Positions 40,640 through 52,596 of a stretch of DNA of 64,000 nucleotides are shown here, one piece after another. Position 1 is the first letter of the stretch, and every line of letters begins with the position of its first letter. The DNA is from an uncultured Clostridia bacterium (GTDB lineage Bacteria; Bacillota; Clostridia; TANB77; CAG-508), in NCBI GenBank assembly GCA_948875265.1, contig CAQRYF010000002.1:2628-66627 (forward strand). The letters run 5' to 3'. A program made the translations under genes and the position numbers. The notes under the pieces are model-generated. The model was not told the DNA's origin. It saw only the letters and a program-made list of their open reading frames with translations, and ran no database searches.

Positions 40640-41233
40640 TTATCCTATTCTAGTAATTCCGTTTTCCTTTTCTAATCTAGCTATTTGATAAGAAAATTGT
40701 TTATGTTCAACATTATTTTGTAACATAAATTGATCTATCTTATAATTAATCTCTTTTCTAGTTCTTGTCTGTTCTCTTAATATTTGTGCCATATTGACAT
40801 TAGTCATAACATCTAGTTTATCATTAATTTTCTTTATTTCTGTCTTTATATCATCAATTTCATTTACCTTTTCTTTTATAGCATCAATTTCGTTTACTTT
40901 CTCTTTTATATCATCAATTTGATTTACTTTTTCTTTTATGGCATCTATTTTGCTTACCTTTTCTTTTATGGCATCAATTTGATTTACTTTTTCTTTTATG
41001 GCATCTATTTCATTTACTTTCTCTTTTATATCATCTATTTGATTTATTTTTTCTTTTATGGCATCTATTTCATTTACTTTCTCTTCTATCGCATCTATTT
41101 TGCTTACCTTTTCTTTTATAGCATCTATTTCATTTACTTTCTCTTCTATTGTATCTATTTTGCTTACTTTCTCTTTTACATCAGTAAATTCTGCTTGCAT
41201 TTTATCCCATAATTCATCTATTTGCATATACAT
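40640..41233 (-). CDS. repeat protein with ~12 tandem 11-aa units (IDAIKEKVNE[I/Q])
   Basis: 33-bp DNA tandem repeats in frame. Confidence 0.55.
   Translation of the reverse strand: MYMQIDELWDKMQAEFTDVKEKVSKIDTIEEKVNEIDAIKEKVSKIDAIEEKVNEIDAIKEKINQIDDIKEKVNEIDAIKEKVNQIDAIKEKVSKIDAIKEKVNQIDDIKEKVNEIDAIKEKVNEIDDIKTEIKKINDKLDVMTNVNMAQILREQTRTRKEINYKIDQFMLQNNVEHKQFSYQIARLEKENGITRIG
40820..41200. repeat. tandem 33-bp coding repeats
   Basis: Units such as atcaatttcatttaccttttcttttatagc are visible. Confidence 0.8.
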
Positions 41234-43244: not shown

Positions 43245-43613
43245 CTATTTAAACCATCTATTTATACTTTCGTTTAATTCTAAATATTCTCTATACATAT
43301 CTAACTTATATAATTCGAATTTAAACTCATTTTCACAATAAATTGTTTTTCCATTAATTAATATTTCATACCTAAGTCCATCTCCTATATTATTTAAGTC
43401 AATCAAATCCACTTCTATATTTATTATATCTTCTAGTTCTTGAGACAAGTAAAATAATTCTTTCTTATTTATTTCTCTTTTTGGCTTTATGGCAATATCA
43501 ATGTCATTTTCTTTATTTTGTGTACCTCTTGCATAACTTCCGAATAATACGATTGCTTCACATTCAATTTTTTCTAAAATTACTTTTTTTAATTTTTCTA
43601 ACTTTTCATCCAT
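43245..43613 (-). CDS. nucleotidyltransferase-domain protein (MNT-like, antitoxin-type)
   Basis: LFGSYARG...DIDIAI. Confidence 0.7.
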   Translation of the reverse strand: MDEKLEKLKKVILEKIECEAIVLFGSYARGTQNKENDIDIAIKPKREINKKELFYLSQELEDIINIEVDLIDLNNIGDGLRYEILINGKTIYCENEFKFELYKLDMYREYLELNESINRWFK

Positions 43614-43831: not shown

Positions 43832-44194
43832 TTATGATACTTTTAGTTCATCTAGTCTTTTTCTTATTCTATTCCTTTTTATTTCTATCTTCTCTTTTAA
43901 TTCTTTATTTTGTTTCTGATATAATTCTATTAATTTACTACGTTCTTCATCTGTCATATCTTCTTCAAATATTTTTCCTGCTTTATATTCTTTTTGTAGC
44001 TTTATTACTTTCAATTCTTCTTCATCTTGCTTTACAATTATATTTTCTTTAAAAGTATTATTCTCTACATCTCTTATCATTTTTTCTGTATTAGTATTAT
44101 CTTGTATTTTTTCTCTGTTAGAAAATAAATTTCTAAACATTTTTTTAATTTTAGATATAAAATTTTCTTTATATTCCACAATATCTTTATTCAT
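43832..44194 (-). CDS. hypothetical K/E-rich coiled-coil protein
   Basis: ORF directly downstream of the helicase. Confidence 0.4.
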   Translation of the reverse strand: MNKDIVEYKENFISKIKKMFRNLFSNREKIQDNTNTEKMIRDVENNTFKENIIVKQDEEELKVIKLQKEYKAGKIFEEDMTDEERSKLIELYQKQNKELKEKIEIKRNRIRKRLDELKVS

Positions 44195-44197
44195 ATT

Positions 44198-46963
44198 TTA
44201 ATCTCCTATTTTGTTAGATTTGTCTTTTTTCTCTGCTTGCATAACTTCATTCTCTAACTTTTCAGTTTGTTCTAAGGTTTCTTGTAATTTTTTTTGCTCA
44301 TCTTCTAATATTTCTAATTGTGTTTTTGTTTCTTTATCTTCTTCATATTTAAACTTAAATCCCAGACTATGTACTTTATCAATTATTTCATACTTTGTCT
44401 TTTCACCTAAGTTTCTAATCATATTAAAATCTTCATATTTTTCAATTTCATTTATCAAGTTGGAAATTGTATAACTTTCTACTATATCTCTTCCTCTTAT
44501 ATAACGTGCCAAACAATTATAAGCTCTCGTAGATAGCCCAATTTCATCTAAATGTATTTCACCTTTTTCATATCTTTCTCGTTCTTTTTGTTCTTTTTCT
44601 TTTAATTCAGTTTCTCGTTGTTCTTGGACTATTTTCATTAATTCATCAATCTTATCTTTACTTAAATTTGGTTCATTGTCACCAACAAATACATCATGCA
44701 TTGAAAAATATTTTTTCACAAATTCTTCTGTTGGTTCATATACATACTCATCAATGAATTTTTTTCTTGTAGGATTTCTCAATTTTCTTAATGCTCTAAT
44801 TTCCATTTGTCTTATGCTTTCTGGAGTAACATCATATATTTTTGCTACTTCATTGAATGTTTTTGGATAACCATCTTTAAGTCCAAAACGTAATTGAATT
44901 ATTGATTTTTCTTTCTCTTTCAATTCATCTAAACTTAGATTTATACCTATATCTATTTTATCACTTATTACTTTTCCCCTTCTATTATGATCTTTATCAT
45001 AAATGCAGTCTAATAATATGTTATATTCTTTTTTACCATAAAAATCGAAATTATTTATTAATGGTAAATCATTTTGATACCATGATATATTTTCATTCTC
45101 GTTTAATCTTTCTTTTCTTTTTTCTGTGTTGGCATTCACTAGGTCTACTTTATATTGAATATAAGCATCTCTAAAATTATCAATTGTTCCAAAATCTTGT
45201 ACTAATTGTATAATACTTTTTGTTTGAATTCCATATTTTTCTTCTAACACTTCATCTTCTTTTGTTAATCCAAATACTCCACCTAGTTTTGCATCTATCA
45301 ATTCTTGTTCTAATTCTTTAGGTAATTTTCCTCTTGATTTTCGATTAATAATATACTGATAATCCGATTTATATAATTCTTCTAAATACTTGATTTCATC
45401 TCTTTCAAATTTTTTCTGCAAATCTATTCTATTAGAAAATGCATATGGATATTTCTCACAAAAATCTTTCAAACGTTTTATTTTTTCTTCTATAGTATCT
45501 TTTTTCTCATATAAATATAATATTCCTAGTTTTTCTAATCTTTCTTTATCTTCTTCGCTATATTTAACCATATTTTTATCATATACCATACTTTGTCTAA
45601 TCTGTATCAAATATTTACCAATTGGATATCCTTCAAAAATTGTGTCACTGTGAATTTTTTCATTTGGATTTTCATTAATAAACTTTTCAAATAAATCAAT
45701 TTTTTCTTCTATTGATAATGATTGTAATCGACTAAGTTGTTCAATCTTTCTAGATATCTCTCCAATATTTTTTGTATAATCTACTATTTTAAATTTTCTA
45801 TTTTTAGAATCATCTTTTGTATTATCGTCCTTCATTCTTCCATTTAATTCTCTTGTAAAATCCTCAACAACTCTTATAGAATCAAAATTATCAACTAAAT
45901 CTATAATAACTGGTCTTTTTGAAGAGTTTCCTACTGTTAATGCTCTACCAATTTGTTGCATATATATTGTAGGAGATTTCGTTGGTCTCATCATCACTAC
46001 TCCATCAATATCTGGTAAGTGATATCCTTCATTTAACATATTTACCGAAAATATTAATTTTAATGTATTTTCATTATTATCATTCTCAAATTGTTTTAAT
46101 ATTTTTTTATTGTTTTTTAAGCTTTCTGAAGATGCAACACTATATATCTTTATATTAGGATTAATTTTAGAGAATAAATCTTGTGATTCTTGAATCTTTT
46201 TTTCCATTTCTTCTATATTAGAACAAAATACCATGTATTTTCCATTTTTATTAGTAATATGTTTTTCTAAAACTTCAGGCAAATTCTCTGTATCCTTATT
46301 TAATTGTTTCGATAATTCTTCAAAAAGTTTTCTTGCTTCGTCTTTTCTTGATTGAGTTGAATTTGAATTTTCTATTTGTTCTTTTAATTGTAATAATTTA
46401 TCTTCATACCCATACATTGCACTAACATAATCAAATTCTGGAAGAATACCCTTTTCTATAGCTTCCATAAAAGATATTTCTGATGCTATATGATTTCCAA
46501 ACATCTCTTCAGCCATATCAATATTACCATCAAAATATCTAATTGGTGTTGCTGATAATCCTAAAACTTTTGCATCCGGAAACATATTACATAACTCATT
46601 TACAGCTTCTCCCCAAACTGGAGCTCCACAATGATGAAACTCATCAAGAACTATTATATCTGGATTGATTTTTTTCATTTCTTCATTATCCAGTTTTGAT
46701 GTTTTTTGATATGTCATTCTTTCTAGTCCTAAAAATTTTTGTCCATTGTATTTTATTGAATCTTCTTTTATTTGATGTAAAATTGATATACTAGGCGCTA
46801 AATATAAAACTTTCTTTCCCTGATTATCTTCTATCAGTTTTAGTGCAATATAAGATTTTCCTGTTCCTGTAGGATGAATTATTGCTGCTCTATTACCATT
46901 TTCAAATTCTTCTTTTACTCCATTATAAGCTTCTTGTTGGTGTATTTTTAATTCGATACTCAT
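44198..46963 (-). CDS. SF2 DExH helicase fused to a sigma-70 region-4-like HTH and an RNAP alpha-CTD-like domain
   Basis: HPTGTGKS Walker A, DEFHH box; LSLDELKEKEKSIIQLRFGL...ESIRQMEIRALRKLR; LSTRAYNCLARY...NLGEKTKYEI. Confidence 0.75.
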   Translation of the reverse strand: MSIELKIHQQEAYNGVKEEFENGNRAAIIHPTGTGKSYIALKLIEDNQGKKVLYLAPSISILHQIKEDSIKYNGQKFLGLERMTYQKTSKLDNEEMKKINPDIIVLDEFHHCGAPVWGEAVNELCNMFPDAKVLGLSATPIRYFDGNIDMAEEMFGNHIASEISFMEAIEKGILPEFDYVSAMYGYEDKLLQLKEQIENSNSTQSRKDEARKLFEELSKQLNKDTENLPEVLEKHITNKNGKYMVFCSNIEEMEKKIQESQDLFSKINPNIKIYSVASSESLKNNKKILKQFENDNNENTLKLIFSVNMLNEGYHLPDIDGVVMMRPTKSPTIYMQQIGRALTVGNSSKRPVIIDLVDNFDSIRVVEDFTRELNGRMKDDNTKDDSKNRKFKIVDYTKNIGEISRKIEQLSRLQSLSIEEKIDLFEKFINENPNEKIHSDTIFEGYPIGKYLIQIRQSMVYDKNMVKYSEEDKERLEKLGILYLYEKKDTIEEKIKRLKDFCEKYPYAFSNRIDLQKKFERDEIKYLEELYKSDYQYIINRKSRGKLPKELEQELIDAKLGGVFGLTKEDEVLEEKYGIQTKSIIQLVQDFGTIDNFRDAYIQYKVDLVNANTEKRKERLNENENISWYQNDLPLINNFDFYGKKEYNILLDCIYDKDHNRRGKVISDKIDIGINLSLDELKEKEKSIIQLRFGLKDGYPKTFNEVAKIYDVTPESIRQMEIRALRKLRNPTRKKFIDEYVYEPTEEFVKKYFSMHDVFVGDNEPNLSKDKIDELMKIVQEQRETELKEKEQKERERYEKGEIHLDEIGLSTRAYNCLARYIRGRDIVESYTISNLINEIEKYEDFNMIRNLGEKTKYEIIDKVHSLGFKFKYEEDKETKTQLEILEDEQKKLQETLEQTEKLENEVMQAEKKDKSNKIGD

Positions 46964-47283
46964 TTTTTACCTCTACTTTTTAACATTTTTATATTATACC
47001 ACTTTTATTCTGTATTTATATTAAAATTTTTTTCATCGCAAATATGAAAAACTATTCTATTATTCATCATTATTATACAATTTCTACGTTTTTTATTCAA
47101 TAACTAGCAAGCAATTTTTCTTTACTTTTTTGTTACTTTTTTATTACAATTTTTTAAAAAATTATAGGACAAATAACTTATTATTTTTAGTAAACTTTTT
47201 AGCTTATTGTAAATATTAAAAATCATTTTATTTAAAAAAAGAAAAGCCTCTAATATCATCGACCTTCCTTTTTTCACTAATTC

Positions 47284-48288
47284 TTAGCCATTATTTCTTA
47301 TATAATTCCAAGAGTCTTTACACATATCATCTAAATTCTTTGTAGCTTCCCAGCCCAACTCTTCTTTAGCTTTTTTAGGATTTGCATAACAAGTTGCAAT
47401 ATCACCTGCTCTTCTTGGAGCTATTTTATATGGCACTTCTTTACCTGTCGCTTGTTCAAATCCTTTTACCATATCTAACACACTATATCCAGTTCCTGTT
47501 CCTAAGTTATAAATATACAGTCCTTTTCCTTCTTTATCTAATTTATTTAATGCTGATACATGTCCTTTAGCTAAATCTACAACATGAATATAATCTCTTA
47601 CTCCTGTTCCATCATGAGTATCATAATCGTTTCCAAATACAGATAACTCTTTTAAAGTTCCAGCAGCAACTCTTGCTACATATGGCATTAAGTTATTTGG
47701 TATACCTTGTGGTTCTTCTCCAATTAATCCACTTTCATGTGCTCCTACTGGGTTAAAATATCTTAATATACATATATCCCAACTATTATCAGATGCATAT
47801 GTATCTTTTAATATTTGTTCTATAAATAACTTTGATGTACCATATGGATTTGTAGTTCCTCCTGTTTTACATTCTTCTGTAATCGGAATAAACTCTGGAT
47901 CTCCATATACTGTTGCTGAAGAGCTAAATATAAACTTCTTTACATTATATTTTTTCATAACATCTAGCAAAACTAAACATCCTGATACATTATTTGTATA
48001 ATATTCTATAGGTTTTTGAACTGATTCTCCTACTGCTTTATATCCTGCAAAGTTTAAAACACTATCAATTTCATTTTCTTCAAATACTTTTTCTAATTTT
48101 TCCTTATCTAGATAATCTAATTCATAAAACTTAAACTCTTTACCTGTTATTTGTTTTATTCTATCTAAAACTTCTGGTTTACTATTTGAAAAGTTATCTA
48201 TAATAACTATTTCCTTTCCTTCATTTAATAATTCTACAGCAGTATGACTTCCTATATATCCTGCTCCTCCTGGTAATAAAATTGCCAT
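47284..48288 (-). CDS. galE: UDP-glucose 4-epimerase
   Basis: [15 protein letters not shown] start with GGAGG RBS; the ORF-track N-terminal extension runs into the repeat region and is rejected. Confidence 0.9.
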
Positions 48289-48307
48289 TTTAAATTCCTC
48301 CTTTTTT

Positions 48308-48379
48308 TGTCCTATTGGGGACGTTTCTGTTTGGGACACTTCCCAAATGTCCCATAGACAAACGTCCCTAATGGGACAT
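48308..48379. repeat. two head-to-head family-A palindromic repeats
   Basis: TGTCCTATTGGGGACGTTTCTGTTTGGGACAC + ATGTCCCATAGACAAACGTCCCTAATGGGACAT. Confidence 0.85.
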
Positions 48380-49762
48380 TTGCTTAATTTCTGTCCCTTC
48401 TTTGGTATCTTTGATTTCATATCCTTTACTTTGTATTAAATCTCTTAATTCATCTGATTTAATCCAGTCCTTATTTTCTCTTGCTTTTTTTCTTTGTTCT
48501 ACTAAATCTAATATTTCTTGTGGTATCTCTTCTATTTGTTTTTTAGTTTCTTCGTTTATTTTTAAACCTAACACTGTATCAAATTTTATTAACAATTCTG
48601 CCAATTTAGGAGATTTCTTATCATTTCTGACAACCTCCCATACAGCACTCATAGCAGCTGGCATGTTTAAATCATCATTTATTGCTTTATGGAATTTCTC
48701 CTCATATTCATTAATTATACTTTGGTCTATTTCATCTTTTCCTTCTAGATGATTTTTATATCCTTGTTTTAGTCTTTCTAATGATTTTGAAGCCGCTTCT
48801 ATTCCTTCCCAAGTGAAATTTAATTTATTTTTGTAATGACATGAATAGCTAAATAATCTATATACAATTGGGTCATATCCTCTTTCAATAAAATCTTTAA
48901 TCAAATACACATTTCCTAAACTCTTTGACATTTTCCCACCATTGATTAGCAAATATTCTCCATGCATCCAATAATTAGCTGGAATTTTTCCACAAGCTCC
49001 TTTACTTTGAGCTATCTCGTTTTCATGGTGTGTTGGTATTAAGTCTATACCACCTGTATGTATATCAAATTGTTCGCCTAAATATTTTTGTCCCATTGCA
49101 GAACATTCTATATGCCATCCTGGGTAACTTAATCCCCAAGGACTATCCCATTTCATCAGATGATTTTCTGGTGCTTTTATCCATAAAGCAAAATCATATG
49201 GATTTCTTTTTTCTGGATCTATATCAACCCTTGCACCTGCTTTTTGTTCTTCTAAATTCAAGTTTGATAATATTGGATATTTATCTAATTTAGATATATC
49301 AAAATATATAGCTGTAGAGGTTTCATATGCATATCCTTTTTGTACTAGTTTTTTAACATATTCAAGCATTTCATTTATATGTTCTGTTGCTTTACATACA
49401 ATCTCTGGTGTTTCTATATTTAATAATTCTAAATCTTTAAAAAATAAATCTGTATAATATTTAGATATTTCTAACGGTGTTTTATTTTCTTCTCTTGCTG
49501 ACTTTAACATTTTGTCTTCACCTTCATCACCATCAGATACCAAATGCCCCACATCTGTTATATTCATTGCATGCTTTATTTTATATCCATTATATCTTAA
49601 AACTCTTCTTAAAACATCTTGAAATATATTTGTTCTCATATTTCCAATTGTTGCATCTTTATATACTGTTGGTCCACATGAATATATTTTCACCTCTTCT
49701 TTATCTATTGAGGTAAATAACTCTTTTTTCTTTGTCAATGTATTACTAAAAAATATATCCAT
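48368..49762 (-). CDS. cysS: cysteine--tRNA ligase
   Basis: HIGH-type and KMSKS motifs; last codons overlap the repeat. Confidence 0.9.
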
Positions 49763-49844: not shown

Positions 49845-52481
49845 CTATGGATTAGTTGGTGTTGTTCCTTCATCTGGTTTGTCAGTTCCTGCATTTCCTC
49901 CTGAAGGTCCTTCATCTGGTTTTTCAGTTCCTGTATTCCCTCCTGATGTTCCTCCATTATCTCCTCCAGTATTTGTATTTGAAGATGTGTTTGTAGAATT
50001 TGTATTTGTAGTATTTGTGTTTACTGTATTTGTTTTTGGCTTTTCTGATTCTTCTGGTTTTTTATGTATTGTACAAGTTTCTGTTACTTCTTTTCCTGAT
50101 GAAGAACTTTTACCTGAAGCTTTCCACAAATTTAGTTTCTCTTTTGGTGGCACAACACCATAACTATTTGGTTTTGTACTTGGGCAATATTCATTTGCTA
50201 TCAACCCTGATTCTGTACATAAGTTTTGTGTGCCATGTCCTGGACATTTTTCAGGTAGGTGATTTTGTGCAAAGATTTCTTTATACGTATCTGTGCATCC
50301 TGTTGTTGCAACACAACCAGTTGTTTTACATACTGTTTGTTCTACAATTCCTCCAGGTCTTTTAAATGATGCTTTTTCTAATCCTTTATGAATATCTGTC
50401 ATTATTGCGTCCCATATTTGTCCTGCTGGATTTGTACCATTATATCTTACTTCTTCTGGATTATCATATCCAAACCAACAAGCTGCTGCATAATATGGTG
50501 TAAATCCACAAAGCCATCTATCATAACTATTGTCTGTTGTTCCTGTTTTAGCAGCTACATCCATTCCTGATATAGAACAATATGTTGCTGTTCCTTTTTT
50601 TACAGGCTCTTGTAATATTGATTTCACTATATATGCATTTTGTTCTGATATTACTCTTCTTCTTTCTTGAGTTGGTGTTAATACTGTATTTCCACTCACA
50701 TCTACAACTTTTGTATAGAAAGTTGGTGTTATATATTCTCCATTATTTGCTATTGTAGCATATGCTGCTGCCATTTCTAATGGGCTAATTCCATCTGAAA
50801 TTCCTCCAATTGCAAGAGGTAAGCTTTCATCATCTTTTTTTGGATTTTCTCCATTTTTATATAAGCTTGTTACTCCAAAATTTCTTAAATAATCAATTGA
50901 TTTACCTGGTGTTAGTTCTCTCATAATTTTGACTTCTGGAACATTTTGTGAGTATGCAATTATATCCCTAATATTTATTAATCCTCTATATTTATTACCA
51001 TCATTTTTTGGTTTATATCCACTAAAATCTGTTTGTACATCATCATATACTGTTGCTGCAGTTATTATTCCTTCTTCTAATGCTGGTGCTATATCTGCAA
51101 TTGGTTTTATTGAAGAACCTGGTTGTCTATTAGTTTGAGTTGCTCTATTTAAATTTGCTCCTGTTTTTTCTCCTAATCCTCCAGATACACCTATAACATT
51201 TCCTGTTTGGTGATCTATCACTACAAAAGCTGCTTGTGTATGGTCATTTTTCTTCTCTCCATTTTTATCTTTATCAACACCATTAAATTGATATTTTTCC
51301 TTAAGAGTTTCTTGTTCTATTCTAGTTTGTATTGTTTGATCAACTGTTGAATATATTGTAAGTCCACTACTGTATACATAGTTTTCAGCTAATTGTCTTG
51401 ATATTCCCTTTTCTTCCATTACTTGGCCAATTACTTGTTCAACAACCGCATCTGCATGGTACGAATATGATGTTCCTGTACTTTGTGCTCCTTTTTCAAA
51501 TGTTAATCCAGCTTCTGCTTTTGAAACAGCAACATTATATTCATCTTCATTTTGTATATAACCTAATTCTTTCATTTTAGATAACACTGTTAATGTTTTA
51601 GACTTAATTCTTTCATTTCTTTTTTCTTCTGTATCATTTTCTGATGCTAATTTATATGGATTGTATTTACTTGGCGATGTGTTTATTCCTGCTAAAAATG
51701 CACATTCTGCTAAATCCAAATCTTTTGCACTTTTATTAAAATAATATTCTGCTCCTAATTCTACTCCATGAAGATTTCCTTCTCCACCTATATATAAAAT
51801 ATTTAAATATAATTCAAGAATTTGATCTTTAGATATCATTCTTTCTACTTGATATGCTTTTGCCCATTCTTTTACTTTTCTCATTATTCCAGCTATTCCT
51901 GATGCCTCATCATCTTTTGTTATATTTTTAACTAACTGTTGAGTAATTGTACTTCCTCCATATGAGCTTTTACCAAGTACTGTATTTATTATGGCTCCAC
52001 CTGTTCTTTTTATATCAACTCCATTATGTTTATAAAATCTCTCATCTTCTATCGCTACATAAGCTTTTGGTAGATAATCTGCCATGTCTTCTATTTTTAT
52101 TATCTTTCTTTTTTCATCTCCACTTAAATTGGCAACAACTGCCCCATTTTTATCTACTATAACAGAGTTTGAAGCTTCAATTTTTAATTCGTCTTTTGTT
52201 ATTTCAAATTCATCTCCAAATAAGCCAAAAAACATTCCTGCAACAATTCCTGCTCCTATAACACATAAAAGCAAGATTATAATTATTAATATTTTAAACG
52301 CCATAACTAATTTAGGATGTTTTGATTGTTTGTTTCCCTTTTTACAATTTTGCTTTCTTTTCACTTCTGGTCTTTTCCTTGATTTATTTGCTGTTCTTTT
52401 ATTATTTGTTTTCTTTCTTCTTTTTCCATTTTGAACTTTATATGATTTTGTTTTATCTTTATCATTATTACTACTTGGCAT
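49845..52481 (-). CDS. class A penicillin-binding protein (transglycosylase + transpeptidase) with basic N-terminus and TNT/GG-rich C-terminal low-complexity tail
   Basis: GT51 and SxxK/SxN/KTG motifs; AGGAGGT RBS at the MPSSNN start. Confidence 0.85.
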   Translation of the reverse strand: MPSSNNDKDKTKSYKVQNGKRRKKTNNKRTANKSRKRPEVKRKQNCKKGNKQSKHPKLVMAFKILIIIILLLCVIGAGIVAGMFFGLFGDEFEITKDELKIEASNSVIVDKNGAVVANLSGDEKRKIIKIEDMADYLPKAYVAIEDERFYKHNGVDIKRTGGAIINTVLGKSSYGGSTITQQLVKNITKDDEASGIAGIMRKVKEWAKAYQVERMISKDQILELYLNILYIGGEGNLHGVELGAEYYFNKSAKDLDLAECAFLAGINTSPSKYNPYKLASENDTEEKRNERIKSKTLTVLSKMKELGYIQNEDEYNVAVSKAEAGLTFEKGAQSTGTSYSYHADAVVEQVIGQVMEEKGISRQLAENYVYSSGLTIYSTVDQTIQTRIEQETLKEKYQFNGVDKDKNGEKKNDHTQAAFVVIDHQTGNVIGVSGGLGEKTGANLNRATQTNRQPGSSIKPIADIAPALEEGIITAATVYDDVQTDFSGYKPKNDGNKYRGLINIRDIIAYSQNVPEVKIMRELTPGKSIDYLRNFGVTSLYKNGENPKKDDESLPLAIGGISDGISPLEMAAAYATIANNGEYITPTFYTKVVDVSGNTVLTPTQERRRVISEQNAYIVKSILQEPVKKGTATYCSISGMDVAAKTGTTDNSYDRWLCGFTPYYAAACWFGYDNPEEVRYNGTNPAGQIWDAIMTDIHKGLEKASFKRPGGIVEQTVCKTTGCVATTGCTDTYKEIFAQNHLPEKCPGHGTQNLCTESGLIANEYCPSTKPNSYGVVPPKEKLNLWKASGKSSSSGKEVTETCTIHKKPEESEKPKTNTVNTNTTNTNSTNTSSNTNTGGDNGGTSGGNTGTEKPDEGPSGGNAGTDKPDEGTTPTNP

Positions 52482-52596
52482 TTTATTACCTCCTTGCCAA
52501 TTAAAATTCGACAAATACATTATATTATACTTTTTTAAAAAAAGAAAGCTTTTAAAGAAATTTTTAATAAATTCAATCATCTATATTTTACATAAA

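Follow-up and report, generated by a model that had tools for sequence, protein, structure and literature searches.

We tentatively suggest that a 921-aa helicase from an uncultured Clostridia bacterium is a chromosomal translocase of double-stranded DNA (dsDNA) that is steered to AT-rich, promoter-upstream-like DNA by a C-terminal cassette, which consists of sigma-70 region 4 (sigma4) followed by the C-terminal domain of the RNA polymerase (RNAP) alpha subunit (alphaCTD). The gene lies in the 64,000-nt stretch of DNA analysed here (the window; assembly GCA_948875265.1, contig CAQRYF010000002.1, positions 2,628 to 66,627), which has a GC content of ~25% and carries nearly all of its genes on the minus strand. 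We found no description in the literature of a helicase with near-canonical sigma4 and alphaCTD copies, of the cassette itself or of the small partner protein encoded directly downstream. The two genes, the domains of the helicase and the putative regulatory elements are as follows.

44198..46963, minus strand: helicase-HA-sigma4-alphaCTD gene of superfamily 2 (SF2), 921 aa; open reading frame (ORF) with five Pfam matches above cut-off (four domain types)
45884..46963, minus strand: SF2 ATPase/translocase core, residues 1-360; ResIII, DEAD and Helicase_C matches
45269..45715, minus strand: two HA-like (PF03457-type) three-helix domains, residues ~417-565; strong conservation and PF03457 matches in relatives
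44939..45268, minus strand: helical region with no assigned family, residues ~566-675; six helices predicted by AlphaFold2 (AF2)
44738..44938, minus strand: sigma-70 region 4-like domain, residues 676-742; Sigma70_r4 Pfam match and SigA alignment
44552..44737, minus strand: conserved motif PTEEF..YF..HDVF...LS.D...EL and then a long E/R/K-rich spacer helix, residues 743-804; helix 769-800 in the AF2 model
44360..44551, minus strand: RNAP alphaCTD-like helix-hairpin-helix (HhH) domain in single copy, residues 805-868; RNA_pol_A_CTD Pfam match
44201..44359, minus strand: C-terminal Q/E/K/L-rich coiled-coil-like helix, residues 869-921; helix 872-915 in the AF2 model
43832..44194, minus strand: K/E-rich partner gene, 120 aa, starting 3 nt after the helicase stop codon
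43750..43806, minus strand: terminator-like hairpin closing the two-gene operon; minimum free energy -19.3 kcal/mol, z -8.0 versus shuffled sequences
47072..47100, minus strand: candidate promoter TTGAAT-17-TATAAT in the 320-nt upstream intergenic region; 10/12 match, weak evidence

The ORF with the strings HPTGTGKS, DEFHH and QQIGRALT as well as the sigma4 and alphaCTD segments quoted in a first-pass annotation of this DNA is present as claimed. ResIII (residues 3-142, E 1.3e-19), which together with the DEAD match over the same span represents one and the same lobe, and Helicase_C (residues 230-342, E 1.5e-15) are above the Pfam gathering cut-offs. Walker A (G33-K36), DEFHH (107-111), SAT (137-139) and motif VI (Q336-R340) are in place, and the ATPase motifs I (GxGKS/T), II (DExH), III (SAT) and VI (QxxGR) are invariant across 28 family members, as expected for an SF2 protein. 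Because these motifs are invariant, the ATPase is predicted to be active. In Foldseek searches, the motor has generic SF2 matches (probability 1.00), and the best of these are the dsDNA translocases LlaBIII (type ISP), SauUSI, RadD and XPB/Ssl2. Neither Pfam nor Foldseek detected a nuclease or other effector domain in the 921-aa protein. No curated NCBIfam equivalog was reached; the partial matches are to dnd_restrict_1, RadD, the C-termini of RpoD and rpoA models, and the C-terminus of MzaA.

The region between the motor and the cassette had been described as a long helical middle. It is indeed helical; more specifically, it comprises two HA-like domains plus a further helical region. F425, E426, G445, P447, G449, R456, Y537, R541 and K546 are invariant in the HA-like region of the family, and PF03457 is matched at the aligned position in seven of the 28 family members, while the window protein itself has no match at E<=1. 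DNA binding has been reported for an HA domain (Mills 2013, as cited in PMC12191111). The closest relatives outside the family with this layout, i.e. ResIII and Helicase_C followed by HA repeats, are HA-domain SF2 helicases such as those annotated as "Helicase associated domain protein" on Ruminococcus albus 7 megaplasmids, to which the N-terminal half is 35-36% identical over residues 1-465. However, these proteins, themselves uncharacterised, have neither the sigma4-alphaCTD cassette nor the conserved partner. In the helical region at residues 566-675, G592 and F597 are nearly invariant in the family and no Pfam family matches.

The sigma70_r4 and alphaCTD assignments of the first-pass annotation stood up to the domain searches: Both are above the Pfam cut-offs and both are supported by PDB sequence alignments. 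Sigma70_r4 (PF04545) is matched at residues 678-730 with 50.1 bits against a cut-off of 24.1 (E 2e-13), and residues 677-740 align with residues 306-369 of the 371 residues of B. subtilis SigA with ~49% identity, i.e. with all of region 4 to the end of the sigma factor. This domain thus appears to be a copy of region 4 of a primary sigma factor. With the SigA alignment as anchor, a residue of the window protein has the number of its sigma70 counterpart plus 130. In the family, the scaffold is highly conserved (F/Y563 100%, G564 95%, L565 96%, L598 91%), as is a basic patch of K or R (K593 86%, R596 89%, K597 82%, R599 75%, R603 71%), which the window protein keeps as R723, R726, K727, R729 and R733. 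The least conserved part of the domain is helix H5, in which positions 604-610 are variable and often deleted, with 48% gaps at position 610. Sigma70 touches the beta-flap in and near H1, H2 and H5, and the flap tip is hooked by H5 (Hinton 2010, PMC2988021). Similarity to sigma reaching into region 3.2 was considered and rejected as not robust, since only three cyanobacterial SigA chains showed it. Sigma70_r2 and Sigma70_r3 have no match in the 921-aa protein even at E<=1 in Pfam, and RpoD-type NCBIfam models score 50-65 bits against cut-offs of 354-779.

RNA_pol_A_CTD (PF03118) is matched at residues 793-865 with 32.7 bits against a cut-off of 23.8 (E 6e-8), and the segment aligns with the alphaCTD of C. 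difficile and B. subtilis RpoA with E values of 1.5e-6 to 1.8e-5 in a PDB sequence search. Residues R813, N816, C817, G853, K855 and T856 correspond to E. coli R265, N268, C269, G296, K298 and S299, respectively; the motifs were checked against alphaCTD sequences in the PDB, while the E. coli numbering follows a reference sequence that we take to be correct. Over 168 alphaCTD repeats of the family, the 265 determinant is kept at R265 (86%), N268 (79%), C269 (74%), G296 (89%) and S/T299 (76%), and K298 at only 40%. The rpoA models match with only their last ~95 positions (residues 773-875; 37-42 bits against cut-offs of 228-353) and the N-terminal domain of RpoA is not matched. SigA/RpoD region 4 and the RpoA alphaCTD are the apparent donors of the two C-terminal domains, and the order sigma4-then-alphaCTD unites in one chain two modules that are neighbours on promoter DNA. 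Unlike in the donors, the -35 residues and H5 are relaxed in the family, in which alphaCTD is repeated one to three times; the protein lacks sigma regions 1-3 as well as the alpha N-terminal domain and, therefore, qualifies neither as a sigma factor nor as a subunit of RNAP. Together, the conserved 265 determinant and the variable H5 favour binding to DNA, possibly promoter-upstream-like DNA, and alphaCTD-type contacts over sigma-like docking to RNAP.

The number of alphaCTD copies varies rapidly. Among 108 long members examined, hidden Markov models count one copy in 55, two in 44 and three in eight. The nearest allele (P0001, L001 10001-13045; 1014 aa and 96% identical) has two copies versus one in the window protein, which represents an in-frame polymorphism, and both alleles occur on several contigs. 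In another cluster of >90% identity, the members have lengths of 1273, 1200, 963 and 947 aa. A truncation or frameshift at the 3' end of the window gene, an idea that arose from the 1014-aa homologue, was rejected: One additional alphaCTD repeat, inserted in frame, accounts for the difference, and the ORF downstream cannot be aligned to it. A C-terminal Q/E/K/L-rich helix comparable to that of the window protein is present in 28/28 members.

The cassette appears to be a separable module that travels with other modules binding promoter DNA. An exhaustive HMMER search of 1.84 billion representatives with residues 641-921 as the query yielded 411 matches at E<=1e-10, and sigma4 is followed by alphaCTD in 53 of the best 150 of these. 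Carriers outside the family include HA-sigma4-alphaCTD proteins and proteins of 210-290 aa with only sigma4 and alphaCTD, which are split forms or fragments; the HA-sigma4-alphaCTD fragments match HA with 23-38 bits, two of three above the cut-off of 28.4 bits. In P0178, two alphaCTD follow a complete sigma factor comprising regions 2, 3 and 4; P0204 (L047 2281-5292) has three Spo0A_C domains, then sigma4 and then three alphaCTD; and P0164 has nine tandem Sigma70_r4 domains. At two loci, motor and cassette are encoded by adjacent genes, with a helicase of 677 aa and a cassette of 317 aa in one (L012, 6001-9010) and proteins of 607 aa and 353 aa in the other (L023, 6001-8974). The split-off ORFs are sigma4-2xalphaCTD proteins that are still followed by the small partner gene, and these forms also have the PTEEF-type motif between sigma4 and the spacer helix. 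Helicases of 677 and 607 aa turn up repeatedly among database proteins, as many different sequences from many contigs, which makes a genuine split probable, and such natural split genes argue that the cassette is a module that can be separated from the motor and work with it. A further interrupted locus (L022, 5223-8355) looks like a frameshift inside sigma4.

The co-oriented K/E-rich ORF noted in the first-pass annotation directly downstream of the helicase gene is real. A homologous ORF of 97-133 aa is present directly downstream of the helicase gene in nearly all full-length loci, and the partner is the sole conserved neighbour after clustering of all flanking ORFs of 25 loci. A GGAG sequence is located 8 nt upstream of its ATG, within the last codons of the helicase gene, and the partner is, therefore, predicted to be translationally coupled to the helicase. 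The hairpin downstream of the partner gene is followed by the U-rich tail UUUUGAUU and was missed by a consensus terminator scanner because the stem is AT-rich. The 3-nt spacing, the GGAG and the strong hairpin argue that the unit is bicistronic. Upstream, the intergenic region contains 32 promoter-like sites versus 31.4 expected from shuffling, and the site at 47072..47100 is, therefore, only a candidate; with a GC content of 25%, such a promoter scan is uninformative.

The partner consists of a cationic amphipathic N-terminal helix, a disordered or poorly predicted middle and a long C-terminal helix. The N-terminal helix (sFFxKIKxFFKxlF) has a hydrophobic moment of 0.57-0.84 and a net charge of +3 to +5, and the C-terminal helix has the coiled-coil pattern LSxxxxxKLxxLY. 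The model of the partner has a predicted local distance difference test score (pLDDT) of 72, and of above 85 in the C-terminal helix. It has no fold match in the PDB by Foldseek, and the family has no match in Pfam, PADLOC, PHROGs, NCBIfam or a profile search of 5.8 billion proteins. Residues 8-25 presumably resemble MinD/SepF-type membrane-targeting helices, which we consider a lead and not a result; the helix could equally be a protein-docking helix. The subtypes of the partner track the subclades of the helicase, and two paralogous helicase-sigma4-alphaCTD genes located 24 kb apart on CAKOTX010000002.1 (L010 and L014) each have their own partner subtype. These observations suggest a specific physical pair with pair-specific co-evolution, in which the C-terminal coiled-coil-like helix of the helicase is a plausible docking site for the partner.

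Called uncommon in the first-pass annotation, the architecture is frequent in metagenomes: The four-domain architecture is present in >80 of the 120 best matches in the collection of 5.8 billion proteins, all four domains are present in 28/28 sampled members, and dozens of 90%-identity clusters have it. The description holds for cultured organisms, phages, plasmids and the literature. The sole name in the sources is [quoted passage not shown]. An alignment-based scan identified 37 loci in species-representative genomes, nearly all of them from metagenome-assembled genomes (MAGs) of uncultured gut and rumen Clostridia (human, rabbit, goat) with a few Bacilli MAGs, while a single-sequence scan of reference genomes gave nothing. 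Searches of INPHARED phages, PLSDB plasmids and IMG/VR viral contigs yielded no full-length copy, and a mobile-element origin was rejected on this basis. The neighbours of the window locus are housekeeping genes (galE, cysS, argS and the gene for PBP1), while in other lineages they are ligA, priA, ruvX, ruvC, holA and others; the set differs between lineages. The context is partly syntenic across genera, and ligA, upstream in 5/25 loci, reflects ordinary synteny.

Based on these data, we prefer the following model. The operon is chromosomal and would be inherited vertically among uncultured gut Clostridia. Its first gene would encode an active SF2 translocase/helicase for dsDNA, with two HA-like domains and a C-terminal cassette from the transcription-initiation machinery. 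This cassette, i.e. primary-sigma region 4 plus one to three alphaCTD units on E/R/K-rich helical spacers, would be a DNA-targeting device. Through R265/N268/C269/G296/S299, the alphaCTD units would bind in the minor groove of AT-rich DNA resembling UP elements, and the sigma4 helix-turn-helix (HTH) would adjoin them through the basic patch K593, R596, K597, R599 and R603, as upstream of promoters. Loaded on promoter-upstream-like DNA, the motor would translocate and remodel DNA or protein-DNA complexes, with transcription complexes as the most likely target. The second gene would encode a small coiled-coil protein that probably binds the C-terminal helix of the helicase and adds a tether or a regulator. 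Observed are the identities of the domains, the intact ATPase motifs, the pattern of conservation, the operon with its partner gene, the distribution and the lack of nuclease domains and defence neighbours, whereas cassette-DNA binding, the sites targeted, the cellular process and what the partner does are inferred.

Several observations weigh against this model, and we hold it as possible and as the leading one among those considered. First, the -35 base-contact positions of sigma4 are poorly conserved in the family (R584 28%, E585 37%, R586 59%, R588 51%, Q589 65%), which makes uniform -35 recognition unlikely; the window protein has P714, E715, S716, R718 and Q719 at these positions (584/585/586/588/589), and with Pro and Ser at two of them, true -35 recognition by this protein is doubtful. 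Second, because the genome has a GC content of 25%, binding of AT tracts by alphaCTD would give little site selectivity. Third, the AF2 model of the helicase (built on 28 homologues; mean pLDDT 79.5) has a predicted template modelling score of only 0.49, i.e. its domains are reliable while their mutual arrangement is not. Fourth, the sister architectures P0178 and P0204 are rare, and P0204 is found on one 5.7-kb contig, the context of which is uninformative; the ORF downstream of it is unrelated to the small partner, and this architecture was not found on viral contigs. Fifth, the motor partly resembles helicases of the restriction type (PbeA, mREase_IV, dnd_restrict_1), which keeps a role in conflict open. 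Finally, literature searches aimed at this architecture returned no published description or experimental study of the family, and searches on MzaA, on the decoy idea and on the contacts of sigma region 4 brought up nothing on it either.

The alternative that survives best, although we consider it rather unlikely, is a helicase for replication, recombination or repair, RadD-like or of the type in phage replication modules, in which sigma4 and alphaCTD are generic HTH and HhH DNA binders with no link to transcription. RadD (YejH) of E. coli has the same SF2 core topology and motif set, with a sequence match over residues 4-359, and by Foldseek it has the lowest root-mean-square deviation among the top matches (6.9 over 397 columns, E 5e-11). 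Nevertheless, the RadD equivalog NF053632 scores 57.9 bits against a cut-off of 720 and over its N-terminal 357 positions only, and the C-terminal part of RadD is unmatched, the helicase having HA, sigma4 and alphaCTD in its place. The N-terminal motor/HA half also matches phage "DNA helicase" genes located beside genes for Sak4-like annealing proteins, as well as PHROG 16; these phage genes and the R. albus megaplasmid genes are the mobile-element relatives, and they cover this half only. The ligA, priA, ruvX, ruvC and holA neighbours of some lineages would fit a repair function as well, but they are not kept beyond related lineages. The relaxed -35-reading residues agree with plain DNA binding. 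In the BREX proteins BrxL and PglW, which are large ATPases/kinases, domains similar to the sigma HTH and to alphaCTD have been described as DNA-binding modules (PMC12839542), a precedent that fits this alternative and the preferred model alike. By contrast, the sigma4 of the family is no generic HTH: Its ~49% identity to primary-sigma region 4 includes the RxPxR tail, and the cassette travels with sigma and Spo0A_C modules.

Less probable than a repair helicase is a motor that docks on RNAP, with sigma4 binding the beta-flap tip in the place of sigma and the translocase pushing, recycling or removing stalled or sigma-free polymerase in the manner of RapA, HelD and Mfd. In its favour, region 4 of the window protein is complete through H5, the positions in H1 and H2 are well conserved in the family (in addition to F/Y563, G564 and L565, these are L551 at 89% and E/D555 at 90%), and the fold matches include the RNAP-associated translocases CSB and XPB/Ssl2, though with generic SF2 scores. 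However, H5, the hook for the flap tip, is the part that varies most, fold stability explains the conservation of H1 and H2 equally well, and there is no sigma region 2 or 3 for binding to core RNAP. RapA, HelD and Mfd are functional analogues only: Like them, the helicase is a DNA motor that may have a physical link to the transcription machinery, but their RNAP-binding parts are not homologous to the helicase, and none of them has sigma or alpha domains. To our knowledge, the known bacterial RNAP-associated motors use dedicated RNAP-binding domains and none carries pieces for promoter recognition. The first-pass annotation had proposed a helicase recruited to RNAP or promoters; the promoter-domain identities behind this idea hold and DNA binding is favoured, whereas sigma-like docking on RNAP is disfavoured by the variable H5, and any such function would be deduced from the domains.

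It is improbable that the protein acts against phages, whether as a translocase of the restriction type or as a guard displaying decoys of RNAP surfaces that phages attack. The best fold and sequence matches of the motor are to helicases of SauUSI (type IV), LlaBIII (type ISP) and the DndH/PbeA-like type, with LlaBIII and SauUSI at the top of the fold matches, and PbeA (90 bits), mREase_IV, dnd_restrict_1 and the MzaA C-terminus are matched in part. Unlike these enzymes, the 921-aa protein has no phospholipase D (PLD) or other nuclease, target-recognition or methyltransferase domain; with SauUSI-type type IV enzymes, the helicase part alone aligns. The Dnd/Pbe score is 76 bits against a cut-off of 600, the PbeA matches are partial, and there are no dnd/pbe genes in the window or the 25 loci. 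Similarly, the sigma region 4 at the C-terminus of MzaA, a sigma-70-family protein of the MZA anti-phage system, matches residues 629-743 (68 bits, cut-off 800; 41 bits in PADLOC), this domain alone is shared, and the neighbours are galE, cysS and argS instead of Mza genes. None of these scores comes near the family cut-offs of 600-800 bits. Restriction-modification or defence neighbours, for which the first-pass annotation had suggested a check, were not found by clustering of the flanking ORFs of the 25 loci, and a defence island was rejected because PADLOC and NCBIfam gave only partial matches to the motor or sigma4; the housekeeping context with partial synteny across genera and the lack of full-length proteins in phages, plasmids and IMG/VR point in the same direction.

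Region 4 of S. aureus sigmaA (4g6d), which we take to be the complex with phage G1 gp67, is among the best PDB sequence matches. Sigma region 4 is targeted by AsiA- and gp67-type anti-sigma proteins and is, with alphaCTD, among the RNAP surfaces that phages attack most often. R265, conserved in the alphaCTD of the family, is the site of ADP-ribosylation by T4 Alt/ModA (PMC2988021), and the rapid changes in alphaCTD copy number would also fit such a conflict. Nevertheless, the guard reading, in which the primary-sigma region 4 and alphaCTD are decoys and a phage early protein that binds or modifies them switches on the motor and the partner, ranks lowest and is very improbable. If it were true, the shifting number of alphaCTD copies and the proteins with nine sigma4 or with three Spo0A_C, sigma4 and three alphaCTD would be products of an arms race.

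The helicase family is widespread in the large uncultured part of the gut microbiota, and the cassette is also found on sigma factors and Spo0A-type arrays. Both point to a means, so far unstudied, of directing enzymes to DNA that resembles promoters or to partners of sigma4 and alphaCTD. If the cassette reads UP/-35-like DNA without RNAP, it would also be a compact natural tag with which to target promoters. A second puzzle beside the helicase is the conserved orphan partner.

Other features of the window were noted in passing. Downstream of the operon, a gene at 43245-43613 (minus strand) encodes an MntA-type nucleotidyltransferase of the type VII antitoxin family (96.6 bits against a cut-off of 60). 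No HepT toxin gene adjoins it, and argS starts 25 nt downstream; this arrangement is repeated in four same-species contigs. In the window, Rfam revealed no T-box leader preceding argS or cysS; the sole Rfam family at gathering score is the bacterial RNase P RNA class A at 11644-11993 (minus strand, 297 bits). A 197-aa protein encoded at 40640-41233 (minus strand) contains ~11 tandem 30-nt units (10-aa KEKVNEIDAI-type; repeats at 40829-41178), and because its homologue in related contigs has 155 aa, the repeat number varies. In the gene for a class A penicillin-binding protein (49845-52580, minus strand), a 42-nt tandem repeat at 49864-49957 encodes a Gly/Thr/Pro/Asp-rich low-complexity C-terminal tail. 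Finally, the longest-ORF start of galE (47284-48420, minus strand; 378 aa) overlaps the end of cysS; because homologues of galE are annotated with 334 aa, translation probably begins at the Met of codon 45.

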